IMG/VR virus record: IMGVR_UViG_3300019926_000104
Span: 1 to 57,981 of that record
Reading direction: 5' to 3' (one strand)
Length of the DNA stretch: 57,981 nt
Origin: a virus
Below are positions 1 to 57,981 of this stretch, in pieces. The notes below the pieces were generated by a model that did not search any database, had not been told where the DNA came from, and worked only from the letters and a program-made list of their open reading frames with translations. Both the position numbers and the translations under genes were made by a program. Position 1 is the stretch's first letter, and each line of letters opens with the position of its first letter.

Positions 1-99
1 AGATTGGGGAGCCGTTCGCCCACCGACTCTCCCAAGAGTTCCAAGGCAAGCTACAAGGCTACGAATCCGACCTACAGGACCGCGCCGATACGGGAGGTA
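1..99 (+). repeat. Terminal overlap copy 1 (identical to 57883..57981)
   Basis: Base-by-base identity read directly from both window ends. Confidence 0.95.
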
Positions 100-113
100 A
101 CTCGGAACGATGA
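1..113 (+). CDS. 3' end of the wrap-around ORF that starts at 57588; hypothetical acidic protein (about 135 aa in total)
   Basis: The frame of the 57588 ORF is preserved through the overlap. It stops at TGA 111..113, in an ATGA overlap with the ATG at 110. Confidence 0.6.
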   Translation, partial: IGEPFAHRLSQEFQGKLQGYESDLQDRADTGGNSER

Positions 114-505
114 GTGAAAGCGACCGTCTGTTCGTCCCGTTGAACTCAGAACCGTGGTACGCCTTCGAGAGTGACGAGAAGCGGGCAGAGTTCCGCGGCG
201 TCAACGACCAATACAACCGTGACACAGTCTTCGAAGGACGAACTGTTGAACTCCGGCGCGGCTACTCGACTGACGATTCACTCTGGGGAACTATCTCCGA
301 AGTGCAGGTCGGGGACGACCTCGGCGCAATGGTGCAGGAGTGGGGTGACGAACTCCTGTATGGCGACAGGCATCTCGGCGAAGTTGCTGCGTCGGCGAAC
401 GAGCTGGTCGGCGACTACGACATGTACATCGTATTCGGCGTGGATTTGGACACTACCGAGACTGCCCCTTCGCGGACGGATTCGGGAGGAGACGACAGTG
501 AGTAA
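110..505 (+). CDS. Hypothetical acidic protein, possibly ASCH/PUA-like
   Basis: 131-aa ORF, acidic, coupled to both neighbours. Only weak resemblance to the ASCH pattern (KRAEFRG ... TVELRRGYS). Confidence 0.6.
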   Translation: MSESDRLFVPLNSEPWYAFESDEKRAEFRGVNDQYNRDTVFEGRTVELRRGYSTDDSLWGTISEVQVGDDLGAMVQEWGDELLYGDRHLGEVAASANELVGDYDMYIVFGVDLDTTETAPSRTDSGGDDSE

Positions 506-716
506 GCCGGAAGCGGTGTTCCCGATGGAGATAGAGCGTGGCGACCGCGTGGGGCGCTGTCCGGAGTGTGGCCCTGTCGTCCGCGACGACGTAGACATGA
601 CCGGCGTCATCGCCGTCTGTGGCATCTGCGGAGACACGCTGGACAAGTACACTATCGCGTCACACGACACACGTCTCACGCAAGCCGGTTTTGACCCAAG
701 CCGGAGGGAATCGTAA
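498..716 (+). CDS. Small zinc-ribbon protein
   Basis: CPECG ... CGICG pairs. GTG 498 overlaps the upstream stop; alternative ATG at 525. Confidence 0.55.
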   Translation: MSKPEAVFPMEIERGDRVGRCPECGPVVRDDVDMTGVIAVCGICGDTLDKYTIASHDTRLTQAGFDPSRRES

Positions 717-1255
717 TGCTACACGTCGACCTGTGCTGTGGGCTCGGCGGCTGGTCCCAGCCGTTCAGGGACGCCGACCGGTGGCGGTCGGTCGGCCTGG
801 ATATTCGTAGCGACCTGAACGCCGACGTCGTGGCCGATGTCCAGGCACTTCCGCTGGACTGTTCGCCCGATCTCCTGACGATGTCACCGCCATGCACGAA
901 CTTCTCCCGCTATTCAATGCCGTGGCTGGACGAACCTGAGCCGGACATGTCGCTCGTTCGTGCGTGCCTGGACGCCGTCGACGAACTGGACCCGGACCAC
1001 TGGGTCATGGAAAACGTGCGCGGCCTCAAACAGTACTGGGGCCGTGAGGAACAGAAGCGCGTCGGCCCGTACTATCTCTGGGGCGACTTCCCGGCCTTCG
1101 ATGTCGTGGTATCGGACGGTGGGAAGATGCAAATCTCAGGGGAGAACCCAGAACAGCGAGCACAGATTCCATACGGACTCGGGGACTCGCTACGGCGGTC
1201 TGTCGAGTGGTCCGGAACTGTCGGAACGTCGGGCGAAAATGTGGAGGAACCATGA
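716..1255 (+). CDS. Short DNA (cytosine-5) methyltransferase-like protein
   Basis: Motif I DLCCGLGGW, motif IV SPPCTNFS, motif VI MENVRGL. At 179 aa no obvious target-recognition domain is visible. Confidence 0.7.
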   Translation: MLHVDLCCGLGGWSQPFRDADRWRSVGLDIRSDLNADVVADVQALPLDCSPDLLTMSPPCTNFSRYSMPWLDEPEPDMSLVRACLDAVDELDPDHWVMENVRGLKQYWGREEQKRVGPYYLWGDFPAFDVVVSDGGKMQISGENPEQRAQIPYGLGDSLRRSVEWSGTVGTSGENVEEP

Positions 1256-1683
1256 CCTCTGGAGAAATCAAAACCGGCAAGAGAATCATGTCGTCACCGC
1301 TCACGGGCCAGCTGTACCTCGTGACGCGGTGGGAAGACCTGGGCGACGGGAAGTTCAAGTCACTGGAAAAAGAGAAGCTTCGAGACCCACCACTCGGCTA
1401 CACACTGCCCGGCATCGAGGGCATGACGTTCCGACCGCGTGGTCCGCTCGGAGACGAGCCAGCAGACGCGCCTGTGACGGCTGCCATCGGATTCTGTCCG
1501 CGGTGTGGGGAGAACGCCCGACTAACCACGGAAGTTCGAGGGACGTTCAACTGCCCCGGTTGTAGCTATCAGTGGCACGACTCCAGAGTAGGCGAGCAGA
1601 CTCGGATGATTGAGGACTATTTCACCACCGCCGATTCCAGCCCTGAACTGGATGAAAATGTGAATGGTGGTAGTAATGACTGA
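1252..1683 (+). CDS. Zinc-ribbon protein
   Basis: ATGA overlap with the upstream stop; CPRCG ... CPGC. Confidence 0.6.
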   Translation: MTSGEIKTGKRIMSSPLTGQLYLVTRWEDLGDGKFKSLEKEKLRDPPLGYTLPGIEGMTFRPRGPLGDEPADAPVTAAIGFCPRCGENARLTTEVRGTFNCPGCSYQWHDSRVGEQTRMIEDYFTTADSSPELDENVNGGSND

Positions 1684-1894
1684 GTGTGACACCTGCGGCG
1701 AGGAGCCGCGTAGGCATCCAGAAACGGGCGCTGTGGTTGGGGCCGTCAGCGTGTACGTCGGTGATGGCGAGTCGTACTGGTTTTGCTCGGACAACTGCTA
1801 CGAATCCCACTGGATAAGCAACGATGTAGATACCCAACAGCAGCGTCTACACGACGTGACCGATAACAACAGTAAGACGGAGGGTTCTGAATAA
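1676..1894 (+). CDS. Small Cys-rich protein
   Basis: CDTCG ... CSDNC; start overlaps the upstream stop. Confidence 0.55.
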   Translation: MTECDTCGEEPRRHPETGAVVGAVSVYVGDGESYWFCSDNCYESHWISNDVDTQQQRLHDVTDNNSKTEGSE

Positions 1895-2067
1895 TGGGCT
1901 TCAACGGAGAAAAATGGTGGTCGTGTCCGAATTGCGGTTCACAGACAAAAGTAGACATTGACGAACAAACTCGCAGCTGCGAGGAATGCGAGTGGTCGGT
2001 CACGATCCCGCACGCCGATTCCCTCGCAGGAGCGGAAGGAAACGGAGGAGACAATGGCGACAACTGA
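1894..2067 (+). CDS. Small zinc-ribbon protein (57 aa)
   Basis: CPNCG ... CEEC. The ATG shares one base with the upstream TAA. Below the ORF-track size cut-off. Confidence 0.45.
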   Translation: MGFNGEKWWSCPNCGSQTKVDIDEQTRSCEECEWSVTIPHADSLAGAEGNGGDNGDN

Positions 2068-2443
2068 CGACGACTGTCCCCGATGTGGGCTCCGGCTTGA
2101 GGAGTCACCAGCTGCCGATGCATCGGTAGAGTGTGAACGGTGCGGGTTCTACGTCTACGAACACGCGGAGGTAGACCTGCCGCCGATGTGGCGCGAAGAA
2201 CCGCAACTGGCTGACCGGCTGGGGCTGTCACGACTGTTCGCACATCTCGACGGGCCGGGTTTCATCGGCGTCCGTGGAGATACTGTCGAGTTGGTCCGCG
2301 CCGACCTGAAGGCAGGCGAAGATGCCGACCCCGAAAAATGCGATATTATCGGCAGAGAGGAGCGAGCAGAGCGTATTAGGGAACTTGCACAGACCTACAA
2401 CGAGGAACGCGCCGGTTCTGGCGATAACTCGGGGGAAATGTAG
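2054..2443 (+). CDS. Zinc-ribbon protein
   Basis: CPRCG ... CERCG; acidic C-terminal half. Confidence 0.55.
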   Translation: MATTDDDCPRCGLRLEESPAADASVECERCGFYVYEHAEVDLPPMWREEPQLADRLGLSRLFAHLDGPGFIGVRGDTVELVRADLKAGEDADPEKCDIIGREERAERIRELAQTYNEERAGSGDNSGEM

Positions 2444-2444
2444 A

Positions 2445-2552
2445 ATGGTCGCTTGTGACTCTTGCGGGGAAGTGAGAGAAATAGACCAGATAGTAAACGC
2501 ATACGACGAGACAGAATACTACTGTCCCGACTGTTCCGAAAACGACGAATAA
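2445..2552 (+). CDS. Zinc-ribbon microprotein (35 aa)
   Basis: CDSCG ... CPDC; starts 2 nt after the upstream stop. Confidence 0.4.
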   Translation: MVACDSCGEVREIDQIVNAYDETEYYCPDCSENDE

Positions 2553-2605
2553 GCGGTTTCTTTTGTAATCTGCTGCGAGAAATCAGCGGTCAGTCTGGCT
2601 CACTA

Positions 2606-4132
2606 TTACCCGAACAGTCGGGCCAAATCGACCGTGGTGCCGCTATCGGTGGTGTCGCCCACTCGTGTCGATTCGTAGCCGCGGGCGGAGCCCTCTACGA
2701 TATGGGTCGCACTTTCCCAGTTGCCGTTTACCTCCTCTAATTCGACCGCGGGGTCCATGTATCGGTTTGCGTCGCTGTGCTGGATCGTCACGTCGATGTT
2801 TAGCTGCCCGATCGGGGCGTCGGCGTCGGTGATCCAAACCGCACGCCGCGGGTTCGCACTGTCAGCCGTGCCGCTGTCGTTGATGGCAACACTTCCGCAG
2901 ATTACGTCACCGCCGCGGATTTCAACAGGGTTAGAACAATGCTCGAAGCTGGCATTATCCATCATCACGACGCCGGGCTGTGAATTGGTCTCCACGATGA
3001 ATCCCCTCGTCCCGTTACCAGAGGTACCCGTGACGGCCCCGCGGAAGATAATGGTCGGGCCACTTACCAACGCGGATGCTCGGAATTGGTCGCCCGTGCC
3101 GGCATCGCGGGAGGTTGCCCGAATGTCCGCCACGGCATCGGAACTGTTCATCTGGAGGAAAACCGGGTACTTCCCAAATTTCTGCCAGTCGCCGTCAACA
3201 ATGGCGGTCCCGTTTAGGACGGGTTTGAAACCATTGAGGTACCCGTTCGTCGTTGTGCCGTCGGCTTCCCCGTCAGGTTGTCCGATGAATCGGCATCCGG
3301 CACCGATATAGAGGTTCCCAAGATCGCCGTTTCCGGTGCTCCGCATGATGAAATACGGGTTCGTGTTCCGGCCGGTGATGGTGTTTCCTCTCCACGTCAC
3401 GTTTCTGGTTTTCAAGGCGCCTAACGGCGTCCTATTTTCGAGAAACGCTGTTTGTGATGACTGTTCGCTGATGTCGATGTTTTTTATCAGAACATTCTCA
3501 AACTCGATCTCTCCCCACTCGTCTACAGTCAGGAAGGCCAGCCCATTGTTCGATAGGTTGGCGAGGTCGAGGGTCAGATCCTTGTACTTTAGCGTAGCAG
3601 AGGGGGCGGCTCCACCCGTTACGAAGTACTGGGCGGCGTCGGTGAATTTCAGTATCGTCCGGTCTCGACCTTGTCCTTCGATTACGGTGGTTTCTGTTGG
3701 CCGGATAGCGTCGGCTCCTTGTGCAATCACCCCTTCCGCCAATTCCAACTTTTGCGGGCCGACACTGGCGTCGAAAGCGGCATTTAGAGTCTCGTCGGTA
3801 TGGACCTGCTGGGTGTTATTGATGGATCCTGTACTGACCGAATTGGCATCCATGCCTTCCGCGAACACATCCACACGATCACCGGGCAGGCCGACGTTTC
3901 CATCTGAATCAGAGGTGTCAGCCGCCGCGCGTGCCTCTCCGATGATTTGGTCTACCGAATAGCCACCAGCCGTAGCCCCAGCACCAAGGGCCACAGCGAC
4001 TTGTAGGACTTGTCGCCGTGTCATACCGCCCTTTTCGGCTATGTCTGCTATGTCCCCGTTGTCCACAAGGTCCACAATCTGTTGCTGTTTCTCACTCGAA
4101 AGAGACAGCAATGGGTTCTCTGCGTTTGCCAT
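2606..4132 (-). CDS. Secreted right-handed beta-helix (pectin-lyase-fold-like) protein with a twin-arginine signal; candidate receptor-binding or depolymerase protein
   Basis: MTRRQVLQVAVALGAGATAGG looks like a Tat motif plus h-region (alternative start 4024). Gly/Asn/Thr-rich periodic beta-strand repeats follow. Confidence 0.6.
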   Translation of the reverse strand: MANAENPLLSLSSEKQQQIVDLVDNGDIADIAEKGGMTRRQVLQVAVALGAGATAGGYSVDQIIGEARAAADTSDSDGNVGLPGDRVDVFAEGMDANSVSTGSINNTQQVHTDETLNAAFDASVGPQKLELAEGVIAQGADAIRPTETTVIEGQGRDRTILKFTDAAQYFVTGGAAPSATLKYKDLTLDLANLSNNGLAFLTVDEWGEIEFENVLIKNIDISEQSSQTAFLENRTPLGALKTRNVTWRGNTITGRNTNPYFIMRSTGNGDLGNLYIGAGCRFIGQPDGEADGTTTNGYLNGFKPVLNGTAIVDGDWQKFGKYPVFLQMNSSDAVADIRATSRDAGTGDQFRASALVSGPTIIFRGAVTGTSGNGTRGFIVETNSQPGVVMMDNASFEHCSNPVEIRGGDVICGSVAINDSGTADSANPRRAVWITDADAPIGQLNIDVTIQHSDANRYMDPAVELEEVNGNWESATHIVEGSARGYESTRVGDTTDSGTTVDLARLFG

Positions 4133-4174
4133 ACGTCATAATGCTGTGCAAATGCTATAAAATCTTGTGTTGGC

Positions 4175-4447
4175 CTATCCTGGCCGAACCGCCGTGTTAA
4201 GCTGCCTCTTGTATTCTCTGACCAGCAAATATGCGAATGAGAATCCCAGAACGAGCAGCGGAACCCAAATAGCAAGGATTTGGAACCATAGATCGGCCCT
4301 TGCCGCACCATTCATTATCTCTGTTCCATCGGAGGCGAGCACATGCAGTGGGCTTTCCGGTGCAAATAGTTCCACAGCCATCCGATGGATTAACGCAGCG
4401 ATTATCATCAGCACCCCGACTAGCGTTATGTCAAATATTCTCGTCAT
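4175..4447 (-). CDS. Small membrane protein (2 TM)
   Basis: Two hydrophobic helices; packed in the minus-strand operon. Confidence 0.6.
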   Translation of the reverse strand: MTRIFDITLVGVLMIIAALIHRMAVELFAPESPLHVLASDGTEIMNGAARADLWFQILAIWVPLLVLGFSFAYLLVREYKRQLNTAVRPG

Positions 4448-4448
4448 C

Positions 4449-4709
4449 TTAGTTCACCTGCCGTGTGATTATTGCAACCAATATTATCCCAAAAAATGAG
4501 ACGATAAGTATCCATAAGGGGAAATATTCGATACCTTGCTGAATCCATGTTGTCGCTTGATTGGCTTTTTCGTGGTCTGTGCTTTCCTTCGCACCGGGCA
4601 GAATCTTACCTGAGATTTCCCACACAATCCACACAACGGGCGCTCCGGCGATTAGGCTAAGAATGAACCGAGCAAGTCCAACAGACTGTGCCCTAGTGTC
4701 CTGTAACAT
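4449..4709 (-). CDS. Small membrane protein (2 TM)
   Basis: Two hydrophobic helices; 1-nt spacing to the next gene. Confidence 0.6.
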   Translation of the reverse strand: MLQDTRAQSVGLARFILSLIAGAPVVWIVWEISGKILPGAKESTDHEKANQATTWIQQGIEYFPLWILIVSFFGIILVAIITRQVN

Positions 4710-4893
4710 GCTCTAACCTATTGCGGCCAGCACAATATAGTTTGGTTCCTGCATAGGTTAGGAAGTACAGGGAACCGAAGGTAGCGATTGTGAGGGTTGT
4801 CCAGTACACCGCGCCACCAGTCGACGGAGTGCTGGCTAATGCGGATATGCCCAGGAGTAGTACTAGCGCATGATGCTTGGTTGTAAGCGTCAT
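4693..4893 (-). CDS. Small membrane protein (2 TM)
   Basis: Two hydrophobic helices. Confidence 0.55.
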   Translation of the reverse strand: MTLTTKHHALVLLLGISALASTPSTGGAVYWTTLTIATFGSLYFLTYAGTKLYCAGRNRLEHVTGH

Positions 4894-4902
4894 AGTTACC
4901 TA

Positions 4903-7900
4903 TTATTCCTCATTTGTATTGAATCGTTCCCCTGTGAGCGGGTTCAAGAACTGTGTGACAACCTCTTCTGATGCACCTTGGACGTTACTGGTTTGATCGT
5001 CCTGTTCTTCATCTTCATTTTCATCATCCCTGCGAACCCTGCGATTGGGTGTGTTGGGATTGAAAGGAACGCCTGGGCTACCCGGACTGCCCGGAGAACC
5101 GATACTACTGGGGCTTCCGGGCGAACCGGGGCTACCTGTTGATGAACCGCCGCTTGGTGAACCAGAACCACCGGGTGAGCCGGGGCTTCCGACAGTGCTT
5201 TCATCAAAGGAACTGCCACCACCGAAGCCGCCGCTTGGCGACAGAACAGACGAAATACCGGGGCTACCACCAGATGGGCTTGAGACACTTCCACCACTGC
5301 TGGGGTCGCGCTCTGTCCCACTAGCCGCGCCACTACCAGAGAATCCAAACGTTGGCAGTGGCCGATCAACGGGCTGGCTTGGGCCGTCTCGACGTGACGA
5401 CCGGCCCGCGCCCGCTCGACGTGCGTTTGCATCACCGTCAACAGTCACGCTGGTATCGGCGTCTGCATCAGCATCTCCCCTTCGGGAACCTGCCACGTCT
5501 GCCCGTTCGTCGTCGGCAAATTCCTCAAGGTTGTTTCGCACCTTGTCGGTTCTACTGTCGTCGATGCGCGACTTTGGAGCGGCTGGACGGACAGGCACAC
5601 GCCGACCGCCAACCTCAATGCGGAAATCAGACCCAATGCCCAACTTCCGAGCCGTCTCACCGATGAACCCGCGCCCGCCAATATCGGAGAACTCACTTCC
5701 GGGCGGGGCAACGGCTTCTATCTCCCCGGTGTTCACTTCACTGCGTGGCTTAGTGCGGGCAGTGTCCATATCATCGGTGTCCTGTAGTTCCTCGTCTAGT
5801 TCCTTGTTCGTCCTGGCATCCGGGTTTTCAACGTCCGTTTTGACAGTCTGGACAGTCGGCTTACTCCCCGTGTCCGGTAGCCCTGGACGGAGGGAGAACT
5901 TGGCACTACGTGACTGAATACGGAGGAAGTTAGGCGACACTTCCGGCCCAAGGAAGTTGCCCTGTAGCTCGAACTCTCCGGCAAGGTCTGAATCTGCATC
6001 CGGGCTACTGATACCCTGTGCTGCACGCCCTCTACCCGGCCCCTGTGGTTCTTGGTCTAACGCCTTCTTGAGTACAACACCCTCTTCAACACCTTGTTCC
6101 TGAAACCGCTGCTCCAATTCATCGGGTGTGTTATCATCGGCCTGTTCCCTCACTGCTTGCGCGGGATCGTCTTTGAACTGTTCGGGGTCGTCTGCACCGG
6201 GGAACCGTTCACCTTCGGCCCCGTCCGTTTCTTGAAACTTCTTCACGTCTTCGGACATAACTTCATCTGTAATGTCCGTAGACCCTGCCGTTCGCACCCT
6301 GTCTTTGGTTGCTCTTGATGCACTTCCGGCGGCCCTACCAGCAGCAGAGCCAATAAGTACTTCTGCCCCTATTTGTGTGCCTGCATAGATTGGGCGTTCT
6401 CGAAACTGGTTGACTTGGCTTCGCGTGGTGCTTGTGACAGTGTTACCGACTGTTCCGGCAGTGTCAACAACTCCGAACTCTCCAACCGTCTCAGGCGTGT
6501 TTTGGGCGGCTTCGACGGCTGTATCTGCTAACAGGGTTGCCCCTGCTGTTGCTCCGGCTAACGTTCCCGGCAGGTCGCCAAGCGCCCGCCCAACAGTAGC
6601 GCCCGTTTCTGATCCTGTCTGTTCTCTCACGAACCCGCCAACTTCTTCACCCACTCCAAAGAACTCTTGGCGCTGTTCTATGTCCTGTCTAATCTGTCTC
6701 TCTTCACTGTCGCTCGCTATCCCGGCCTGTTCGCCTTGGGTTAGACTATCCTGTATTTCTTGGTTGGGGTCGTTTAGCCCGACTAGGCCTTGCCCGACAG
6801 AGCCAAAGGTAACAGTCTGCCCAAACACGTCTTCCGTAACTGTCCCGTCCGGGTTTCTGGTTATCTCTTCACTGGTAGTACCTCCGCTTGCTCTTGTAGG
6901 CGCTGTGCTCGTTCTCTGGCGGCTTGGTCCGTTGGGCGTGCCCTGGAAGGTCTGTGCTCTGCGCTGTTGTTCACGCGCCGTACTACGCACGTTCTGGCTA
7001 ACTTCTACGTTCCCGTCCGAATCAACCGAAACATCTTCACCAGTGAAGGATGTGTTTAGTTCTCGCTCTAACTGTCTTTCAACGTTCTCTTGCTGTTGTC
7101 GCTCCGCAATATTTCCGACCCTCTCACGGCCAACAGGCGAGAGTTCAACACGCAGTTCATCACCTTCACGAGTAACCTGTAGGTCTTCTTTGCGAAACTC
7201 TGCCCCTGTCGTCTTGAGTCCACTAACGGCGTCCGTGACCTTGGTGCCTGCAACGTCACTCTCAAGACCTTGTGCCTGTTCTTTGACTAACTCACTCTGT
7301 GCAACATCTTCAAGTTCCCCGGTCTTGGTGGCATCAATATCTTCGGTAGAGTCGTTGGTTGGAGCGTCTGTCTCTGCATCGGGCATGGCGGCTTCCGACC
7401 CTTCAACACCACTAGGTCCAATGCCAGACCCGCTCTGTCGAGTAGGCCCGCTTCCAGTAGAGCCGTCTAACATCTGCTCTTGTTCTTGAGTCGGTTCGGG
7501 CGTGCTATCGCTATCATCGTCGCTTGAACTACTGGAACCGCCGCTTAGATTGTTCGGAACAGAACTACCGGGCCTTGTCCCACCGTCGTCGTCTGAATCG
7601 TCGTCTGAATCGTCGTCTGAATCGTCCGAACTACTGGAACCACCAGATGAACCACTATCAGAGTCGCTATCGTCAAACGGGTTATCGCTATCAAGCGAGG
7701 GTTCATCGGGTAGGTCTGCATCACCTCCGCCGCCTAATGGGTCGCTTGACGTACTGCCCGTAGAGCCGTCTAACAGTTGCTCTTGTTCTTGAGTCGGTTC
7801 GGGCGTGCTATCGCTATCATCGTCGTCTGACCCACCGCTGAGGTTGTTGGGAACACTACTCCCCGGTCTTGTTCCACCATCGTCGTCATCGTCATCCGAT

Positions 7901-8084: not shown

Positions 8085-8125
8085 ACTGTGCTATTCACCA
8101 CACAGTGACAAAAAGATTTGTTCGC

Positions 8126-50291: not shown

Positions 50292-50743
50292 GCGGGAATA
50301 CAGCGAAATTGTATCTTGTTTCTCACAATCCGGTTGATGAATATGGTATCGGACTGAATAAGAGCCGTATTCAGCTGGCCGCAGATTACTACAAAATCGG
50401 GATTGCCACAGACCCAGAAAGGCGTCTGAGTGTCATGCAAAGCGGTAGTCCGCATCGTTTAGAATTAGAGACTACCGTTGATTGTGACCAACCCGAAGAT
50501 GTTGAAAGTGACTTGCATAGTATTTATCGGCCATACCACAAATTAGGAGAATGGTTTTCTCTGCCTTCTACCCCCCAGAACTCACTACGGGCGGTTGATT
50601 ATCTCAGCTCCGAGAATACAAAGGTCCTATCGAGACTCCGCGATACGCGCCGTTGGGACTTTGAAAAAGGATTCTACGTGCAATTAATGGAGATTAGGGG
50701 CGGCGAAATAACTCTCCGCGAAGACGGTATTCCCTCAAAGTAA
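50288..50743 (+). CDS. T5orf172 / GIY-YIG-superfamily domain protein
   Basis: YYKIGIATDPERRLSVMQSGSP ... ESDLHSIY ... LGEWFSL. Confidence 0.55.
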   Translation: MSGNTAKLYLVSHNPVDEYGIGLNKSRIQLAADYYKIGIATDPERRLSVMQSGSPHRLELETTVDCDQPEDVESDLHSIYRPYHKLGEWFSLPSTPQNSLRAVDYLSSENTKVLSRLRDTRRWDFEKGFYVQLMEIRGGEITLREDGIPSK

Positions 50744-50812
50744 TACTAGTAATCAAACGGTATTACTCGTAACACCACACAACACACAATAACACTAACA
50801 CAACACACCACA

Positions 50813-51202
50813 ATGAGCAAACAACGAAAAACGTTCACCCTTGATCCAGAAGTGAAGGCGTATCTTGATGCAGAAGGACGCAACGCCTCAGAAACCGTCA
50901 ACCGGCTTGTAAAACTCGATATGGGCGAAGAGGTCGTCAATACCGAGATAATCAAAATGCGGATGGAGATGGAGAAAGACAAGTATGAAGCTGCCGCGCA
51001 AAGGGCGAAAGGACACTTAGAACGGTATAACCAACTCCAATCCAGATTAGAGAATCAACACTCAAAGAAACAGGACAAATTAAAAGAGGCAAGAGAGGCT
51101 ATCGGTGGCAAACATCTTACCGCCGATAACCCAGCGGTCAAGAATTGGGCTGAAAAATGTGACATGACGCCAGAAGAACTCTTGGAGGAACTAGACGAAT
51201 GA
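50813..51202 (+). CDS. VapB-like RHH N-terminal domain plus coiled coil
   Basis: TFTLDPEVKAYLDAEGRNASETVNRLVKLD; ATGA-coupled to MCM. Confidence 0.55.
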   Translation: MSKQRKTFTLDPEVKAYLDAEGRNASETVNRLVKLDMGEEVVNTEIIKMRMEMEKDKYEAAAQRAKGHLERYNQLQSRLENQHSKKQDKLKEAREAIGGKHLTADNPAVKNWAEKCDMTPEELLEELDE

Positions 51203-53319
51203 GATACGAGGATTTCAACCAAGAGGACTTAGAACACATCGTCACGTTCTACAAAAACTACTGTAAGGACAAGATAGGCGAACTGGCCCAGAAGTTCCCA
51301 CAGGACAAAGAAAGCCTCTGGGTTGACGTAGACGGGGCACTGTATCGGTATGATCCCGACCTAGCCGACGACGTAAAACAGAATCCAGAAACGTTCCGAG
51401 AGCTGTTTGAAGAAGCCCTACCGCTGTATGATTTGCCTGTTGATGTTGACCTATCGGATGCTACGGTTCGGTTCCATAACATCAACACGCACCAGAAGAA
51501 GGTAGATGAAATCAGGAACGACGACGTAGACCGCCTAATCTCCATTGACGGGCAAATATCAAAGGCTACGGCTGTGCGTCCGGTCGTGAAAGAAGCCGCC
51601 TATGAATGCACTCGTTGTGGTATCATCACGCGGATGCCCGTAGAAAACGAACTCCAAGAACCACACGAATGCCAGGGCTGTGAACGGCAAGGTCCGTTTA
51701 CCTTCGACTATCACAAGTCCGTTGTTCGTGACCACCAACTAATCAGAGTCACCCAGCCACCCGAAGAGGCTACGAACAGTTCACAGGACGGCGGAGACAT
51801 TGATGCTCACGTAGAGGGCGACTTAGTGGGCTACGCGGATGCAGGGGAGCGAGCGGATGTATCTGGTGTTCTCAAAGCAGACACGGGAGATAACGACAAG
51901 CCAACGCTTGATTTCCGATTCAAGGCCCACGCAATCGACAAGGTAGACGATGATTACAGGGACTTGGAGGTTAACGACCACAAAGACGAGATAGAACAGA
52001 TAGTCAACGACGGAAACCCGTTCGTTGCACTGGCTGAATCTATTGCACCGGGTATCACTGGTGGGGAAGATAAGGACATAGAAACGCCGTGGGGCGAAAC
52101 CTATGATAAGTACTGGTGGATTCGCCTTGCGACTGGTGTTGCTAACCTGTTCGGTTCCTGGCGGCGAGAGAACGGAGATGGAACCTACCAGCGCGGGGAC
52201 AGTCACACACTCCTAATTGGTGATCCATCGACAGGCAAATCTACTATCATGGACTCAGTAACCCAGATAGCCCCACGCAGTGCCTCAGAAAGTGGGAAGA
52301 ACGCAAGTGGGGCAGGGCTTACCGCCGCTGCTGTGAATGATGATTTCGGGGACTCTAATTGGTCGCTTGAAGCCGGAGCACTCGTGAAAGCCCACAACGG
52401 CGTAGCCGCGATAGACGAGATAGACAAAATGGCCCGCGAGGATTTGAATAGGCTACACTCTGCATTAGAACGACAGCGACTAGAGTTCAACAAGGCTGGC
52501 ATAGATGCTACCCTCAAGTGTGAAACCAGTATGCTTGCCTCTGGCAACCCGAAGGGGAGCCGGTTCAACAAGTACGATACCGACCAATCCCAGATTGAGA
52601 TAGTCGAAAGTCTGTTAGACCGCTTTGACCTTGTGTTCACCCTCAAGGACATTCCCGACGAAACCAAGGACCGAAAGATTGCACAGTCGAAGATTGCACA
52701 ACGCTCGGAATCTGGCCTAATCGCAAAGAACGAGCTGGAACCAGATAACCGCTCGGCGGCAAAAGCAGAACTCTCACCAGAGAAGGTCCGGTCGTGGGTT
52801 GCTATGGCCCGGCAGAATGTTCGGCCTGTGATTCGTGACAACGACGTAGCGGAGAAACTGGAAGAGTATTACGTCTCCATTCGGCAGCAGAACGCGGACA
52901 ACAACGACGACGATGAATCACCAGTGCCAGCAACAGCACGGAATCTGGACGGTGTGTTGCGGCTGTCAGAGGCGTGTGCGCGTATGCGTCTGTCCGATGA
53001 AGTGGAAATGGTAGACGCTGAAATGGCTATCGCCCTGGTGAAGGTGAGTCTACAGGACGTTGGCTATGATCCAGAGACAGGCAAGATGGATGCTGATTGG
53101 GCCAACGGTCGGGGTTCATTTTCGCAACAAGAGCGGATGGACAAGATAGAAGGACTCATTAGCGAGCTTGAGGGTGAAGAACCAGCCGGGGAAGATAACC
53201 TTGTCCAAACCGCCGTAGACGCTGGAATTGAACAAGAGAAAGTCATAGACACCATAGAGAAATTGGCCCGCAAAGGCGAGATATACGAACCGAAGACGGG
53301 CTACTATCGAGTTAGCTAA
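51199..53319 (+). CDS. mcm: MCM replicative helicase
   Basis: Zn finger CTRCG ... CQGC, Walker A GDPSTGKST, Walker B AAIDEIDKM, SALERQ, arginine finger DRFDLVF. Confidence 0.93.
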   Translation: MRYEDFNQEDLEHIVTFYKNYCKDKIGELAQKFPQDKESLWVDVDGALYRYDPDLADDVKQNPETFRELFEEALPLYDLPVDVDLSDATVRFHNINTHQKKVDEIRNDDVDRLISIDGQISKATAVRPVVKEAAYECTRCGIITRMPVENELQEPHECQGCERQGPFTFDYHKSVVRDHQLIRVTQPPEEATNSSQDGGDIDAHVEGDLVGYADAGERADVSGVLKADTGDNDKPTLDFRFKAHAIDKVDDDYRDLEVNDHKDEIEQIVNDGNPFVALAESIAPGITGGEDKDIETPWGETYDKYWWIRLATGVANLFGSWRRENGDGTYQRGDSHTLLIGDPSTGKSTIMDSVTQIAPRSASESGKNASGAGLTAAAVNDDFGDSNWSLEAGALVKAHNGVAAIDEIDKMAREDLNRLHSALERQRLEFNKAGIDATLKCETSMLASGNPKGSRFNKYDTDQSQIEIVESLLDRFDLVFTLKDIPDETKDRKIAQSKIAQRSESGLIAKNELEPDNRSAAKAELSPEKVRSWVAMARQNVRPVIRDNDVAEKLEEYYVSIRQQNADNNDDDESPVPATARNLDGVLRLSEACARMRLSDEVEMVDAEMAIALVKVSLQDVGYDPETGKMDADWANGRGSFSQQERMDKIEGLISELEGEEPAGEDNLVQTAVDAGIEQEKVIDTIEKLARKGEIYEPKTGYYRVS

Positions 53320-53525
53320 TGCCCTCTACCAATCAGAGTAACCAGAGTAAGGGCGACTACGACACACAAGCCGAACGGTTCATACAATCCGACATGGACA
53401 TAGGGCCACTCGTTCGTGGCATCGAGAGCAAAGAGCGGTGTGAACACTGGATAGAAGAGGCCGACCGATTAGACGCCGAACACGCAAAGAAGGCACTGAC
53501 AGAACGACTCTGGCAGCTTAGTTAA
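53319..53525 (+). CDS. Hypothetical protein
   Basis: 68-aa ORF; its start shares one base with the mcm stop. Confidence 0.5.
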   Translation: MPSTNQSNQSKGDYDTQAERFIQSDMDIGPLVRGIESKERCEHWIEEADRLDAEHAKKALTERLWQLS

Positions 53526-54075
53526 ACTCGTTCACCCGCTGGAAAATCACGTTGACCAACTGCTGATGCAAGTCTTCGGGCAGTTGGGTTCCCTGATCCC
53601 GTAGGAGTTCTTCGACGTATCGGTAACTAAACTCGACAGCGATAGATTCCCCAGTGTCAAAGACCTGTATCGGAGATTTACGCTGTACGGTTTGTTGTTG
53701 TACCTCTGGTTCGTCGTCTGTGCTACCCTTTACAGGACGATCTTGAATACCCTGAAAGCCTTTGTTGTCGTTGTTGTCGGGCTTCAAAGCATCCAGTGGG
53801 TTGCCTGTGGTTTGTTCTTGTCCACTAAACCGTTCGTTCTGTTCTATCTCCGCTCTATAGTCCGCAAGGTCTGGATACTTGTTGTTCAATATGTCCGAAG
53901 AGTACGATTCGTTTACCGGCCCGTCATTGCCTAAGATTTCTTCACCGGCAATACGGGCCTTCTCCCGGTTGGTTTCCTCTGGATTCTGTGCATGGGCGTC
54001 TATCACGGCCTTCTGCTTGTCCGTGAGGTTTTGATACTCTCTATCAAAGTCGTCGTTGGGGTTGGCCTGCATCAC
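53518..54075 (-). CDS. Putative HTH DNA-binding protein
   Basis: LTDKQKAVIDAHAQNPEETNREKARIAG. Confidence 0.5.
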   Translation of the reverse strand: MMQANPNDDFDREYQNLTDKQKAVIDAHAQNPEETNREKARIAGEEILGNDGPVNESYSSDILNNKYPDLADYRAEIEQNERFSGQEQTTGNPLDALKPDNNDNKGFQGIQDRPVKGSTDDEPEVQQQTVQRKSPIQVFDTGESIAVEFSYRYVEELLRDQGTQLPEDLHQQLVNVIFQRVNEFN

Positions 54076-54154
54076 ATCCTAGCAAATGAGTGGGCGACTA
54101 TAAAATCACATGCATAGTTCAACACAGCATGACTGTTAATGCTGTGATTATTAC

Positions 54155-54481
54155 CTACCTACTATAGCGATAATAGAGTAAGGTTATGGCTGCACCGCCG
54201 GTCAACAACAGCGCCAAGACCACAATGGTAATCCCTGGTGCTGCGACCTGTGGAAGAATTGCACCACCAGTAAGAAGAGTCAATATCACAGGAATCCGAA
54301 TATCGCCGGTTCTGAGGAAGATGCTCAGTGTAATTCCTCCGTAGACAAGTAGACCAACCACCAATATCCCAGCGGAATTTGCATACGTGCACGCAATAGA
54401 TTTGACGAAATTAAAACTAAGCAAATGTTCTATCCCACTTGGGCCACCACAAAACGCCTGCATAGGGATTGTTTCGACCAT
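54155..54481 (-). CDS. Membrane protein (3 TM)
   Basis: Hydrophobic helices; ends ...YYRYSR. Confidence 0.55.
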   Translation of the reverse strand: MVETIPMQAFCGGPSGIEHLLSFNFVKSIACTYANSAGILVVGLLVYGGITLSIFLRTGDIRIPVILTLLTGGAILPQVAAPGITIVVLALLLTGGAAITLLYYRYSR

Positions 54482-54482
54482 G

Positions 54483-54854
54483 TTAGATACCCCGGAAGAA
54501 CTTGATGATACCGAGTGCATAGACCACGGTAATTATACTATACAATGGGCCTGTGACGTAACTTGGCGCTCCTATATTCCCCAACATTGCAGGAAAAGCA
54601 TACACTGTCACGCGCAAACGGCCCAGCGTATTGCTCAGAACGTTGTATGAACCGAACAGCGTACTCCCTGTAGGGGCACCTGTACTGACGTTTTGACTTT
54701 CTCGAACGACACTGTCTACTTTATCATCTTGGCCGACGTTGACCTGTCCACCTAAACCCATATCCTGTGCCGCTCCAGAGGCTATGAGCATCCCTGAAAA
54801 CAGGTTTATGGACATTGTGAAGATGATTAGCAACTCTAAGGTTTTGATTCCCAT
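54483..54854 (-). CDS. Membrane protein
   Basis: N- and C-terminal TM helices. Confidence 0.55.
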   Translation of the reverse strand: MGIKTLELLIIFTMSINLFSGMLIASGAAQDMGLGGQVNVGQDDKVDSVVRESQNVSTGAPTGSTLFGSYNVLSNTLGRLRVTVYAFPAMLGNIGAPSYVTGPLYSIITVVYALGIIKFFRGI

Positions 54855-54899
54855 TGGTCTTATGGGATGTTACACGGCTTGTGGCAAAAAGATTGGTTC

Positions 54900-57176
54900 C
54901 TATCGCCCGCCGGAGTACATGTAACTTATCGTGGCTATCAGGATAGCGATTGTGACGGTCGCTCCTGTGGCGATACCACCTAACCACCCAATCCACCACA
55001 TAATACCGCCAACCATTGAGAGGATAACCGCCCCAATCCTGGCATTGAGCACACTGAATGCCCCAGCGAACAGGATTAGCATACCAATCCCGATAGTCGC
55101 TTGCCAGCCTGAATCTATTGGTAACGTTAGGTCCTTGGTGTTACTGTTGACGTTTGAGAGAACGATTGTTTCACCACCGCGTTCAACCACAAAGTCAACC
55201 TGCCATTCCGTTTCACTCTCGTTGGTATCGAGTAGCGTCTGTCCAGAGTACACACCAAGGTTAAACGCCGTTTCGTTAGGTTGCAGCTTGTTGCTCTTGT
55301 TGTTCCGCTCGTGGATGAACACGGTAATCTTGTCTGTAATCTCCCGTGGGTCGGAATAGGCGTATTCCAGCGTAGAGTTTTCAGAGTCGTCTATGTCGTT
55401 AATCGAAGCGCCATATCCGTAGCCAGCGTCAACCTGTTGTAGGTCTATCGTTGGCTGTCCAGGCTCTACAGCAACGGTTTCACTGGTTGCTGCCCTATAT
55501 GGCCCAACCGCTTGTGATTGCGTCTCCCCGGTAACAGAGAGTTCGTATCGTTCCCCTTCTTGGAGCGTGGCAGTAACCCCCTCTGTGCCAAATTCATCGG
55601 CTACGATAGTCTGATACGTGGTTGTGCCGTTGATCGTGATACCACGCTTTATTTTTAGGACAGTCTCACTCCCATACTGTCCGGTCGGGTCTTCCAAGAC
55701 AAATCTGGATTCTATAGTAGTGTAGGCGCTAGTGTTCAACACATACGCGGTGTTCTGTTCGTATATGCTTTCTATGTAGACTGTTCGCGTCGTGTAGTTC
55801 CCGTCTGTCGGCTCTATCTCCACGATAAAGTCTTGATTGACCGGCAGATTATCAAGGTCTAACGTGCCGTCTGACGCCGTCCGATTGTAGATTTCAGTCT
55901 CTCCGTATATCCTGATTTGACCGTCTGCCGGGACTAACTGGCTTGCATTCGTCTCGTTGCGAACAAAGAGCGTATCGGGGACGGCGTAACTCGTGGCTTC
56001 GCTGGTTGTTTGCCCGTAATCGTCTGTGGCTTCTATCTGGATGTTGTGAGAGCCGCCGGTCTGTCCACTAGAAGGCATGGCAGTGGACACTGTGCTATTG
56101 CTGCTAATCGTCTGCGTATCAACCGTGGAACCGTCTAAGATAATATCGACAGTCAGACTATCTCCATCCTTGCTAAAGTCTGTGTCGTTGACCTGAGCAC
56201 TAATCTGGGAGGGTTCACTATCTAAGTCACCACTTGGCTGAATGTCGGTGATAACGGGGTCGTGGTGGTCGATGGTAAACGTGTTAGTAGTACTTGTGTC
56301 GGTGAGTCCATCGGCGTCCGTGGCCTCGACGTAGTAATCATGATCCCCGTCTGCGTATGGCCCGACAGTAACGCTATAGGTGCCTGCTGTGTCGGCTGTC
56401 GTGGTTTCTTCTAGAGCGCCATCAACGTACCATTCCAGCGTAACCGTATCGTCTGGGTAGTCTGGGTCGTCAACATCAACACTAAGGGTCTGGTTTTCGT
56501 ATCGGGTTGAACCGTCGTCTTGGAGGTTAGATAGACTTGGCCCACCTTCGGAGGTTTCCAGAGAGACAGCGTGCTCACTGTTAGAGAGGTTTGTGAACGT
56601 GGCAACACCGTTACTGTCGGTGGTAGTCGTATCCAGAACGCCGCCGTGGGTTTTGTCGACCGCTCGGATAGAAGTATCAGGACTAAGCCCACGCACGACA
56701 ACTTTAGACTCTCCAGAGGAACCAGCATACACAAAGTCAATCTGCCCGTTATCTATGCCAGCGTTTCTAAATTCGATCCTGTCTATGTCTTTGCCAACCG
56801 TGATAGAGCGCTTGTCCTCTGGGTTGATCGTCACATCATTAGCGGTAGCATCAATGTCTGTTACGTTGGTATAGGTTCCTGTGATATTGTCTGTGCGAAC
56901 AGTCGCCCATGCAGGCCCACTAGATGAAAAAGTGATATTCCCGGCTTCGGTTTCCATAGCCACTGTTTGGGAATCTTGAATTAGTACGTCTGTTTCCATA
57001 ATAACGTTTGTACTACCCTCTATGGTGGCGTTCATGCCACCAGGTGCGCCATAGGGGACACCGTCTGAAACGGACCCTGCATCTCCATCTGCGAATGTGA
57101 CACCAAGGACAACACCAGCACCGAGGATTAGCCCAACAAAGAATATGGCCTTGATTGGGAGTTGACGTTTGGACAT
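54900..57176 (-). CDS. Large sequon-rich envelope or spike-like protein with an N-terminal signal/anchor, Ig-like repeats and a C-terminal multi-TM anchor
   Basis: MSKRQLPIKAIFFVGLILGAGVVLG; more than 15 N-x-S/T sequons; beta-rich Thr/Asp repeats; C-terminal TMs ending ...YSGGR. Confidence 0.7.
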   Translation of the reverse strand: MSKRQLPIKAIFFVGLILGAGVVLGVTFADGDAGSVSDGVPYGAPGGMNATIEGSTNVIMETDVLIQDSQTVAMETEAGNITFSSSGPAWATVRTDNITGTYTNVTDIDATANDVTINPEDKRSITVGKDIDRIEFRNAGIDNGQIDFVYAGSSGESKVVVRGLSPDTSIRAVDKTHGGVLDTTTTDSNGVATFTNLSNSEHAVSLETSEGGPSLSNLQDDGSTRYENQTLSVDVDDPDYPDDTVTLEWYVDGALEETTTADTAGTYSVTVGPYADGDHDYYVEATDADGLTDTSTTNTFTIDHHDPVITDIQPSGDLDSEPSQISAQVNDTDFSKDGDSLTVDIILDGSTVDTQTISSNSTVSTAMPSSGQTGGSHNIQIEATDDYGQTTSEATSYAVPDTLFVRNETNASQLVPADGQIRIYGETEIYNRTASDGTLDLDNLPVNQDFIVEIEPTDGNYTTRTVYIESIYEQNTAYVLNTSAYTTIESRFVLEDPTGQYGSETVLKIKRGITINGTTTYQTIVADEFGTEGVTATLQEGERYELSVTGETQSQAVGPYRAATSETVAVEPGQPTIDLQQVDAGYGYGASINDIDDSENSTLEYAYSDPREITDKITVFIHERNNKSNKLQPNETAFNLGVYSGQTLLDTNESETEWQVDFVVERGGETIVLSNVNSNTKDLTLPIDSGWQATIGIGMLILFAGAFSVLNARIGAVILSMVGGIMWWIGWLGGIATGATVTIAILIATISYMYSGGR

Positions 57177-57278
57177 ACGCTTATTTCTTGTGCAAGCGAC
57201 TAAAGTTTTGGTAGAAGTTGTGGGCCTATGCAAAGTATAATAAGTATGCAGTGTGAACAGGGTAGTGTAACACAGTCT

Positions 57279-57428
57279 ATGACGGACACAAGCATTCGGA
57301 TTAGTAAAGAGAACAAAGACGCACTTGCCCGGCTTGGCGATAAGGGTGATACCTACGACGAGATAATCAGTCGGTTACTCCAAGAAAACGACTATATGAA
57401 GTTCGTAGGCGGTGAGTTAGATGAATAG
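57279..57428 (+). CDS. VapB-like RHH microprotein (49 aa)
   Basis: SIRISKENKDALARLGDKGDTYDEIISRLLQE; TATA-like tataataag about 30 nt upstream. Confidence 0.5.
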   Translation: MTDTSIRISKENKDALARLGDKGDTYDEIISRLLQENDYMKFVGGELDE

Positions 57429-57585
57429 CCGGAATGCCGATGAATCTCGGAATATCGGACTCAAGGACATAGACCAAATCGGCGTTAGCAAAGCAAATAA
57501 AGAGACGTGGGGAGAGGTAGCAGACAATATTAGTAGCGCCGATAACGCACCGCCTCGGACGAAAAACGACAACGGAGACAACTAA
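57421..57585 (+). CDS. Hypothetical microprotein (54 aa)
   Basis: Overlaps the upstream stop by 8 nt. Confidence 0.3.
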   Translation: MNSRNADESRNIGLKDIDQIGVSKANKETWGEVADNISSADNAPPRTKNDNGDN

Positions 57586-57587
57586 TC

Positions 57588-57981
57588 ATGTCGAACGAGG
57601 AAACACAATACAGCGTCATTGACGAAGTCGAACAGCTAAACAAACAGTTCCAGTCCGAAGCGTCCTACGGTGGCGTCTCGCTGAACGGGATTGCTGGCTT
57701 CCACAGCCTGTTCAACCACGACGCTGGTATCAACTTCGCCGGCCACACAGCCCTCCACGCGGCGCTCGATGAGGTGCTGATGGAAGTCGCGCTGGACCCG
57801 GATATTGTCGAACAGAACCACGGCGAGGTGACGCCAGAGGCAATGGCAGAGGATCTGAAAGAACAACTCACGCAGTTCACACAGATTGGGGAGCCGTTCG
57901 CCCACCGACTCTCCCAAGAGTTCCAAGGCAAGCTACAAGGCTACGAATCCGACCTACAGGACCGCGCCGATACGGGAGGTA
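57588..57981 (+). CDS. Hypothetical acidic protein, open at the window end; continues through the overlap to TGA 111..113
   Basis: ATG 57588 with no stop before the window end. Confidence 0.6.
   Translation, partial: MSNEETQYSVIDEVEQLNKQFQSEASYGGVSLNGIAGFHSLFNHDAGINFAGHTALHAALDEVLMEVALDPDIVEQNHGEVTPEAMAEDLKEQLTQFTQIGEPFAHRLSQEFQGKLQGYESDLQDRADTGG
57883..57981 (+). repeat. Terminal overlap copy 2 (identical to 1..99)
   Basis: Base-by-base identity read directly from both window ends. Confidence 0.95.

Follow-up and report, generated by a model that had tools for sequence, protein, structure and literature searches.

A 57.9-kb circular genome that probably represents a large-genome lineage of lemon-shaped haloarchaeal viruses

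Introduction

What kind of element is a 58-kb haloarchaeal genome that carries its own MCM helicase and PCNA sliding clamp and has none of the genes by which tailed and icosahedral viruses are usually recognised? The question is raised by the IMG/VR virus record IMGVR_UViG_3300019926_000104, whose whole stretch of 57,981 nucleotides (nt), hereafter the window, was analysed here. The initial annotation had pointed to two small two-helix membrane proteins and a spike-like protein, and had offered a choice between an enveloped, spindle or pleomorphic virus of a new lineage and a vesicle-forming plasmid. On the homologies and gene orders described below, the window is probably a complete circular genome of 57.9 kb, belonging to an uncultured lemon-shaped (spindle) virus that infects Halobacteria and is probably either temperate or shed chronically. 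Among the lemon-shaped viruses of haloarchaea it would stand for a new lineage with large genomes, its morphology and host being predictions.

Spindle-shaped archaeal viruses are defined by a module that combines a hairpin major capsid protein (MCP) with an AAA+ ATPase (Zhou et al. 2025), and the window has a gp16-type ATPase and a small hydrophobic hairpin protein encoded beside it. Lemon-shaped particles are reported to be abundant in hypersaline systems (PMC13612827), yet only a few haloviruses of this shape are available as isolates (His1, BLv25, LSV-48N and Tebi-SV1; 13-25 kb). The known spindle haloviruses are much smaller than the window, as the initial annotation had remarked: those compared here span 9-25 kb (DHSV-1, 9 kb; BLv25, 13 kb; His1, 14.5 kb; LSV-48N, 24.9 kb; and V_ICIS4, 25.3 kb, the morphology of the last being unverified), and nanohaloarchaeal spindle viruses have genomes of 21-22 kb.

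Results and Discussion

Genome form and search for hallmark genes

The first 99 nt of the window are exactly identical to the last 99 nt (1..99 and 57883..57981), giving a unique circle of 57,882 bp, and the junction is crossed by an open reading frame (ORF) at 57588..110. Because the terminal 99 nt are identical and this ORF reads across the junction, we consider the genome to be a closed circle of 57,882 bp. A self-trained codon model called 111 ORFs of at least 45 amino acids (aa), covering about 89% of the sequence; the approximately 135 genes counted initially probably include shorter ORFs. The GC content is about 0.50 genome-wide, with the exception of values of 0.57-0.59 within the first 4 kb. 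The proteome is acidic, with an isoelectric point of 4-5.5 for most of the 90 ORFs first called, as expected for Halobacteria. No tRNA, tRNA fragment acting as an attachment site or member of any Rfam family was found in the whole window.

In order to look for virion hallmarks, the whole proteome was scanned against Pfam-A and PHROGs as 20 concatenated pseudo-proteins, and matches were mapped back by coordinate; E values up to 0.01 were accepted (0.001 for PHROGs on the second half of the proteome). The scan recovered the MCM and PCNA and, across every called protein, no terminase, portal, HK97, double jelly-roll (DJR), tail or pleolipovirus family, bearing out the description with which the question started. 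By this sequence-profile test the whole proteome lacked any family of the Caudoviricetes set (HK97-fold capsid, portal, large terminase), and neither Pfam nor PHROGs matched the vertical jelly-roll capsid and FtsK/HerA packaging ATPase of Sphaerolipoviridae and Simuloviridae or a family B DNA polymerase (PolB). PHROGs likewise contained no match for a VP4-like spike or VP3-like membrane protein of pleolipoviruses. All the ORFs of at least 280 aa were accounted for (MCM, spike, acidic protein, membrane protein, glycosyltransferase, alkaline phosphatase (AlkP)-like, helix-hairpin-helix, nuclease, methyltransferase and ATPase), while about half of all ORFs stayed without annotation. A megablast search with the whole window as query (50,697 phage and 72,556 plasmid records) returned only patches of 366 nt and 79 nt, with 86% identity to Haloarcula tailed virus 3 (HATV-3). 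Thus neither an HK97 or DJR capsid or terminase match nor near-identity to a known element, the two findings named beforehand as able to overturn the initial proposal, was obtained by profile scans or megablast. One row labelled 'terminase small subunit' (phrog_4581, E 1e-3) was rejected, as it falls on the HNH domain of 15891..17069, below many stronger HNH matches.

A virion module colinear with that of LSV-48N

Two genes on the minus strand occupy 54483..57176: the spike or adhesin candidate g108 (758 aa, with Ig-like domains and a C-terminal anchor) and, downstream of it, its partner g107 (123 aa, two transmembrane (TM) helices). The 758-aa protein has an N-terminal TM helix, a C-terminal multi-TM anchor and 18 N-x-S/T sequons, which correspond to 23.7 per 1000 aa compared to a proteome mean of 6.6; the sequon-rich, membrane-anchored spike described initially is thus confirmed. 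A tblastn search among the 50,697 phage and virus records found g108 homologues only in LSV-48N (1e-51) and V_ICIS4 (3e-26). Direct comparison by blastp and with family hidden Markov models (HMMs), built from metagenomic homologues, gave E values of 2e-67 and 2.5e-92 for LSV-48N and of 2e-42 and 3e-69 for V_ICIS4. In both viruses the gene that follows the spike is a homologue of g107 (54483..54854; E values of 1e-11 and 6e-10). LSV-48N is lemon-shaped by electron microscopy (EM), and mass spectrometry of its virion preparations identified the spike homologue as the most abundant viral protein and also detected the 122-aa partner (PMC12714723).

The other structural candidates form an operon on the minus strand at 4175..9622, in the order g013, g012, g010, g009, g008 and g007, and the block is contiguous in the metagenome contig L034. 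The family HMM of g012 matched LSV-48N (3e-7), and those of g007 and g008 matched the V_ICIS4 gene pair directly upstream of its spike (1e-5 each). The 1025-aa protein g009 (4903..7980) is acidic, as had been noted, with 20% Asp+Glu, and rich in Gly (13%) and Ser (12%); it gave no match by tblastn against phages or by phmmer against PDB, and the spike likewise had no phmmer match in PDB. The g009 gene contains an 82-nt direct repeat with 90% identity (7451..7532 and 7754..7835, 303 nt apart), which encodes a duplicated acidic Ser/Asp-rich N-terminal segment.

The gene at 9362..9622 encodes 86 aa with two TM helices and three sequons. The two helices had been recognised correctly and the gene had been called monocistronic; in a relative, its homologue directly abuts the homologue of 8902..9234, and the gene is probably co-transcribed. 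It is weakly similar to the family of the capsid candidate g034 treated below, and a better fit, by position and a weak similarity, is the gene for a 143-aa glycoprotein beside the candidate capsid gene of LSV-48N. At the end of the operon order lies g006 (2606..4132, minus strand), a predicted secreted, sequon-rich protein of 508 aa with nine sequons. Its twin-arginine motif (RRQVLQ) agrees with the Tat signal proposed for it; the proposed beta-helix was not confirmed, since no match was found in phages (tblastn), PDB (phmmer) or Pfam. A 254-aa homologue of the C-terminal part of g006 stands beside the spike gene in the relative L037, and g006 is probably an accessory adhesin.

The order of these genes agrees with that of LSV-48N. 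There, with proteins named by their length in aa, it reads hairpin protein, 143, 99, 199, 290, 824, 86, 92, spike and 122; in the window it reads g034, an insert, g013, g012, g010, g009, g008, g007, g006, a second insert, g108 and g107. The 31-kb contig L034 carries without interruption g108, g107, g007, g008, a 961-aa ORF, g010, g012, g013, g034, g035-g038, g041, g042, a glycosyltransferase and g048. Because the whole set is contiguous in L034 and the gene orders agree with LSV-48N and V_ICIS4, we regard the structural-looking genes as one co-inherited virion module that in the window has been split by insertions.

A His1-type ATPase, membrane proteins and a glycosylation cassette

The P-loop NTPase of the initial annotation is g038 (19061..19945, plus strand), an ATPase of the His1 gp16 type that also matches phrog_5484. 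In proteome-against-proteome blastp it matched BLv25 ORF1 (2e-23) and His1 ORF16 (5e-21), a C-terminal helix-turn-helix (HTH) being common to all, and its family HMM retrieved BLv25 (4e-44), His1 (6e-35), V_ICIS4 (2e-12) and the LSV-48N ATPase (7e-6). By tblastn, homologues appeared among the phage records in His1 and BLv25 only, and among plasmids in a Natrinema plasmid, Haloquadratum PL6 and Natronomonas PL23. There are 493 metagenomic homologues, more than 100 of them at 58-99% identity and from several data sources. These similarities make g038 a candidate ATPase of the morphogenesis or packaging type.

Upstream of the ATPase in all relatives (synteny in L003, L034, L036, L007 and L008) lie g035 (a ribbon-helix-helix domain with a TM helix), g036 and g037 (17582..19085, plus strand); the g036 family HMM matched V_ICIS4 (3e-13), and the LSV-48N gene found at the position of g035-g037 encodes a 195-aa protein detected in virion preparations. 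Downstream, the membrane proteins g041 (82 aa), g042 (508 aa, polytopic) and g043 (156 aa, seven sequons) occupy 20872..23116 on the plus strand and are kept in L003, L034 and L036. The polytopic g042 (21117..22643) has at least five TM segments, in agreement with its first description, and its family HMM matched V_ICIS4 (1e-15), while that of g043 matched a 153-aa protein from LSV-48N virion preparations (1e-4). NCBIfam had no family for the ten module membrane proteins that were tested.

The plus strand at 24048..26301 holds a putative glycosylation cassette, composed of a family 2 glycosyltransferase (GT2; g046, PF00535), a type I phosphodiesterase/AlkP-like protein (g047, PF01663) and a membrane protein similar to His1 ORF32 (g048). 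The last (142 aa, 25873..26301) is 39% identical to ORF32 over its full length (3e-33, blastp) and is placed after the glycosyltransferase, as ORF32 is in His1; the trio also occurs in L009.

The cassette is exchanged among close relatives. The GT2 and phosphodiesterase/AlkP-like genes of the window (24048..25876) stand where L036 (11279..14269) and L003 (15814..19573) have a signal-peptide peptidase, a family 1 glycosyltransferase and a methyltransferase, with the flanking genes (g043 and the ORF32-like g048) retained. Close relatives encode an intramembrane protease within the morphogenetic block, either a signal-peptide peptidase (PF06550) or an M50 protease (L003 15814..16749, L036 11279..12223 and L005 12506..13102), and the window has none at the corresponding position. 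It is possible that this protease is a capsid-maturation enzyme that is dispensable or has been replaced.

A hairpin protein as candidate major capsid protein

The candidate MCP is g034 (17149..17466, minus strand), a protein of 105 aa with two hydrophobic helices, identified by family HMM, an AlphaFold2 model and gene context. Its neighbours are convergent and divergent; a TTTATAT box precedes the gene by about 38 nt, GAGGTG serves as Shine-Dalgarno sequence and the stop codon is followed by T-runs, so that its description as a monocistronic two-helix protein was correct. A conserved NAS sequon lies in the loop and a DDRAQTGG motif ahead of helix 1. An exhaustive HMMER search collected 99 representative clusters of the family, whose consensus reads [DN]xR[AG]Q..DL, helix 1, ..SGDPLYNAS.., helix 2, ..LRGGR. 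The family HMM matched a 166-aa LSV-48N protein detected in virion preparations (3.6e-5), two tandem V_ICIS4 genes (approximately 1e-18) and tandem pairs on contigs of Halobacterium sp. CBA1126 and Halarchaeum salinum (1e-21 to 1e-28). The window itself holds a paralogue, g044 (125 aa with a revised start; 23331..23708, plus strand; family HMM E 4e-15).

In the window and in seven relatives, the hairpin gene or genes stand divergent to the operon that ends with the ATPase, which is the position of VP21 in His1. The AlphaFold2 model, built from 94 sequences, is a two-helix hairpin with a predicted local distance difference test (pLDDT) score of 85. Alignment of the g034 family profile with that of 106 His1_capsid members by hhalign gave a P value of 6e-5, a probability of 65% and a score of 29.4 over 68 columns spanning the R-[AG]-Q-x-G-G motif, both helices and the loop. 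We compared this score with 150 nulls in which columns were permuted within each topological block (mean 15.8, standard deviation 3.8, maximum 25.8) and with the reversed profile (15.0); the observed value exceeds all of them. VP21 and the BLv25 MCP each gave eight matches with E <0.01 to the g034 family, compared with none for six control TM proteins. Taken together, shared architecture and shared gene context of the g034 and His1 capsid families are firm, and remote homology between them is probable, the profile comparison being suggestive. Tebi-SV1 has a 17.5-kDa TM hairpin as its proposed MCP, in the same size class as the g034-family proteins (PMC13612827). The proposal that the small two-helix proteins are capsid proteins of the spindle type holds well for 17149..17466 and weakly for 9362..9622.

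Both hairpin-capsid families carry [DN]-x-R-[AG]-Q-(M/T)-G-G ahead of helix 1 (g034 17400..17420, residues ~17-25; BLv25 ORF2, L002 1012..1368). The motif occurs in 91 of the 106 His1_capsid members and in 27 of 100 g034-family members, most of the remaining ones having A-G-Q. It resembles the class III signal of archaellins and type IV pilins, RG|Q, the site of prepilin peptidase cleavage. By analogy, this suggests that the capsid proteins of spindle viruses may be processed by a host peptidase.

In L036, the closest relative (97% nucleotide identity across the ATPase block), the g034 orthologue is reduced to about its first 45 codons (3177..3314), and other hairpin paralogues are present; this may be either a defective variant or a replacement of the capsid gene.

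Large-genome relatives and affiliation

Other metagenomic contigs share the combination found in the window. Homologues of the MCM with 67-76% identity occur on contigs of 57,909, 60,841 and 31,010 bp, and a 67,228-bp contig has an ATPase homologue with the same local synteny; the 60.8- and 67.2-kb contigs share parts of the window gene set. The 57,909-bp contig follows the order of the window in Hjc, g100, g102, MCM, g105, g107, g108 (55% identity), g002, g007 and g008. A 19-kb contig of a different sample matches with 97% identity over 5.2 kb and is mosaic in its other parts, from which we conclude that the window belongs to a recombining natural population. Three scans of IMG/VR (2.9 million viral contigs), made with an ATPase pattern, a g042 pattern and an ATPase-family alignment, found no relative, which fits a group that has none of the standard hallmark genes; a separate metagenome scan found short contigs only. 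We found no paper describing MCM-encoding relatives of ~58 kb. GC ranges from 0.52 to 0.68 across the related loci and viruses examined, and the 0.50 of the window is a weak host hint only.

Like the window, LSV-48N (Haloferax, PP151251, 24.9 kb) and V_ICIS4 (Halorubrum, OR762182, 25.3 kb) are circular double-stranded DNA genomes with a tyrosine integrase, a spike with its downstream partner, a hairpin family divergent to the ATPase operon and a colinear structural operon; between them they hold homologues of g012, g007, g008, g036, g042, g043, g029 and g074. The differences are also considerable. The window is 2.3 times larger (57.9 kb against ~24-25 kb) and has 50% GC compared to 61-68%; identities are only 25-35%, and about 6 of 37 gene families are shared with LSV-48N and about 12 of 62 with V_ICIS4. 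In the comparison made, the MCM, PCNA, Hjc, several HNH, two C5-methyltransferase-like and helix-hairpin-helix proteins of the window had no homologue in these viruses, and its ATPase is nearer to those of His1 and BLv25 than to that of LSV-48N. For the proposed Almyrocitroviridae (LSV-48N, Tebi-SV1), the virion module is present in conserved order, whereas 57.9 kb departs from the ~24-25 kb of that group.

With His1 (Halspiviridae, 14.5 kb) and BLv25 (13 kb) the window has in common a gp16-type ATPase with C-terminal HTH (30-31% identity), an ORF32 homologue after a glycosyltransferase, a small hairpin gene divergent to the ATPase operon, the R-[AG]-Q-x-G-G motif and the remote similarity of capsid profiles. 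It differs from them in that it is not linear, has no terminal inverted repeats and no protein-primed PolB, and is four times larger; its spike is unrelated to His1 VP27 and g034 does not match Pfam His1_capsid. Since a linear genome, a PolB and a His1_capsid match are absent, the window is not a member of Halspiviridae. Gene content and order place it with LSV-48N, V_ICIS4 and Tebi-SV1 in one assemblage (proposed Almyrocitroviridae), which has a more distant link to Halspiviridae. The novelty claimed for it therefore stands for genome size, replication module and the lack of any near-identical record; the element is not an orphan, as it has its place in this assemblage.

Parts of the module are found on further elements. 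The contigs of Halobacterium sp. CBA1126 (NZ_WPCF01000013) and Halarchaeum salinum JCM 16330 (NZ_BAAABL010000058) encode an ATPase with 57-58% identity, an integrase, a tandem pair of hairpin genes and genes similar to g012, g037 and g042, with PCNA in one of them. Plasmids of Natrinema sp. DC36 (NZ_CP084478) and Halobaculum sp. CBA1158 (NZ_CP090374) were each retrieved with one query, the ATPase and g042, respectively. These four elements are 26-36 kb long, have high GC and are not described as viruses; no spike was detected in those of their stretches that were examined. The SRCE satellites and pL6-family plasmids share the ATPase family with the window; they are 2.7-9 kb in size and have a plasmid Rep or primase and at most MCP and ATPase, whereas the window has a full virion module and MCM replication.

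Interpretation of the genome

The window therefore joins a virion module of the LSV-48N/V_ICIS4 type, in the same order, to an ATPase and ORF32 homologue of the His1/BLv25 type, inside a larger genome with its own replication genes. The EM-verified lemon-shaped haloviruses with homologues of its virion genes are His1, BLv25 and LSV-48N, and we consider a lemon-shaped virus the probable reading. Several results weigh against it. The window is known from its genes alone, and the morphology is deduced from homologues only 25-35% identical. Within the virion operon, g009 is equivalent to the 824-aa gene of LSV-48N and the 735-aa gene of V_ICIS4 by position only, without a sequence match, and no sequence homologue could be detected in the window for the LSV-48N virion-preparation proteins of 199, 290 and 824 aa. 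As for the capsid, the Pfam family His1_capsid (PF25665) was not matched by g034, g013, g044 or g008 and is matched by VP21 (1.5e-37) and BLv25 ORF2 (8e-23), and the profile-profile probability for the g034 family was only 65%. Foldseek with the g034 hairpin found no PDB match and, in BFVD, at best the ATV structural protein ORF104b with a non-significant E of 0.36; a profile search of the family against PDB gave chance-level matches only (an archaeal pilin, E 0.37; the large-spindle-virus MCP 7ro2, E 5.4). We consider these fold and PDB searches uninformative for g034 because its fold is so simple. The 166-aa homologue in LSV-48N is of low abundance, and the authors of the LSV-48N paper did not name it a capsid protein. 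A fold search with the ATPase model (pLDDT 69) retrieved generic P-loop proteins only (KaiC, EssC, STIV2 B204, Zot and NSF; E ≥3e-3), so that the fold matches do not separate a packaging from a replication-initiator role. Finally, elements with module genes have been deposited as isolate plasmids (Natrinema DC36, Halobaculum CBA1158 and Natronomonas PL23).

This last point leads to the strongest of the alternatives, that the window is a plasmid or satellite-like element which captured lemon-virus morphogenetic genes and makes no particles of its own, being episomal, integrated or packaged by a helper, as proposed for SRCE/pL6 and pSSVx. It is true that pL6 plasmids and SRCE satellites have the gp16-type ATPase among their core genes, that some deposited plasmid records hold related modules, and that the window has a full plasmid-like set of maintenance genes (MCM, PCNA, integrase, RelE-like and VapB-like). 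We nevertheless hold this explanation to be rather unlikely: satellites measure 2.7-9 kb and carry only MCP and/or ATPase, whereas the window has the whole colinear virion operon including spike, partners and glycosylation cassette, and LSV-48N is both episome and provirus and yet makes virions. Less probable still is an enveloped pleomorphic virus or vesicle-forming plasmid of the pleolipovirus or pR1SE kind, in which membrane proteins and spike would sit on a host-derived vesicle. The numerous small membrane proteins, the anchored and glycosylated spike and the NTPase give the window a superficial resemblance to pleolipoviruses. No pleolipovirus protein was matched by PHROGs or tblastn, and the spike was found in LSV-48N and V_ICIS4 only. 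The tblastn searches of plasmids, made with the ATPase and g042 queries only, returned no Halorubrum lacusprofundi record, and the detectable virion-gene homologues are all in lemon-shaped viruses. Among the options first listed (enveloped, spindle, pleomorphic or vesicle-forming plasmid), homologues and gene order thus favour the spindle.

Two further possibilities appear very improbable to us. A tailed or icosahedral virus might have a capsid, portal and terminase too divergent for sequence profiles; structure models cover just two ORFs, about half of the ORFs are unannotated and the 366-nt patch is common to the tailed virus HATV-3. Against this, no structural family was matched in the whole proteome, all ORFs of 280 aa or more have an assignment, terminases of haloarchaeal tailed viruses are normally easily detected, and the HATV-3 patch belongs to a Zn-finger gene and not to a structural one. 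The window might also be a chimeric assembly of a 25-30-kb lemon-shaped virus with an unrelated MCM plasmid or virus, as its size is about twice that of cultured relatives and its first 4 kb have a higher GC. The independent 57,909-bp contig comes from another sample and has replication and structural genes (MCM, g105, g107, g108, g002, g007 and g008) in the window's order, for which reason we do not regard the assembly as chimeric; moreover, contigs of 60.8 and 67.2 kb exist, the window ends overlap exactly, and the replication block has structural genes to either side of it.

For a lemon-shaped virus, the genes of the window suggest the following life cycle. The genome would replicate as an episome, its own MCM and PCNA being loaded onto host polymerase and primase, and could use the tyrosine recombinase to integrate. 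The hairpin protein g034, with its paralogue g044 and perhaps g008 and g013, would be made abundantly from its own strong promoter and inserted in the host membrane; N-terminal trimming may occur at its R-A-Q motif, and its conserved NAS sequon is probably N-glycosylated with the aid of the viral GT2/phosphodiesterase/ORF32 cassette. Helped by the gp16-type ATPase, it would assemble a flexible lemon-shaped shell around the DNA, and the glycosylated, membrane-anchored spike g108, with g107, g007, g008 and g009, would form a tail or adsorption structure. Particles would leave without lysis, as His1 and LSV-48N do, and the larger genome would call for a spindle proportionally larger than those of His1 or LSV-48N.

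The window and the 57.9-, 60.8- and 67.2-kb contigs indicate a clade more than twice the size of the isolates, with its own MCM and PCNA. If this is true, the upper genome size of hairpin-capsid spindle viruses rises, which bears on how the capsid scales with genome length; the His1/BLv25 and LSV-48N groups become linked through one mosaic genome; and the hairpin family, the gp16-type ATPase and the spike provide a marker set for finding such viruses in existing data. More speculatively, and with rather low confidence, genomes of 58-67 kb could be those that have been missing for some of the abundant lemon-shaped particles which microscopists have long observed in saltern and salt-lake brines, possibly with low-GC hosts such as Haloquadratum; they might be the largest viruses with small alpha-hairpin capsid proteins, overlooked by detection pipelines for want of hallmark genes.

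Replication, recombination and accessory genes

The replicative helicase MCM (51199..53319, plus strand) matched the Pfam families MCM, MCM_OB and MCM_lid (PF00493, 1e-60) and phrog_10371 (8e-189), and the PCNA sliding clamp (38107..38916, minus strand; PF00705) is also encoded by the Halarchaeum element L008. A Holliday-junction resolvase, Hjc, lies at 46297..46665 (plus strand; PF01870, 5e-17) and is syntenic in L037. The tyrosine integrase at 34609..35283 (plus strand; PF00589, 5e-11; phrog_216, 3e-18) has homologues in L008, L009 and LSV-48N. Between the candidate capsid gene and a block of accessory genes, the plus strand encodes an HNH endonuclease with HNH_repeat domains (15891..17069), and Pfam and PHROGs identified further HNH genes at 20270..20875 and 35280..35774 as well as two C5-methyltransferase-like genes.

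Two divergent helix-hairpin-helix proteins are encoded at 27741..29372 and 26394..27401, with homologues kept in the 60.8-kb relative; for the former a start at 28104 (422 aa) is likelier, and the protein ends with a HELGH zinc-protease-like motif. A RelE-like toxin match (phrog_1213, 2e-5) at 41861..42178 and a VapB-antitoxin-like N-terminus (PF02697, 1e-8) at 12495..12965 may possibly belong to addiction modules for episomal maintenance.

The two patches similar to HATV-3, with 86-87% nucleotide identity, are located at 2041..2406, in the Zn-finger gene 1958..2443, and at 33322..33400. The former sits in the sole high-GC stretch of the window (0.57-0.59, 1-4 kb), which suggests that a tailed and a lemon-shaped halovirus have recently exchanged genes. 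Finally, a 37-nt near-repeat with 84% identity and the palindrome CCATAG...CTATGG occurs at 9996..10032 and 15443..15479, each copy right after a stop codon; the two copies flank the 5.4-kb block of small accessory genes, and the element may be a terminator, an operator or a recombination scar.

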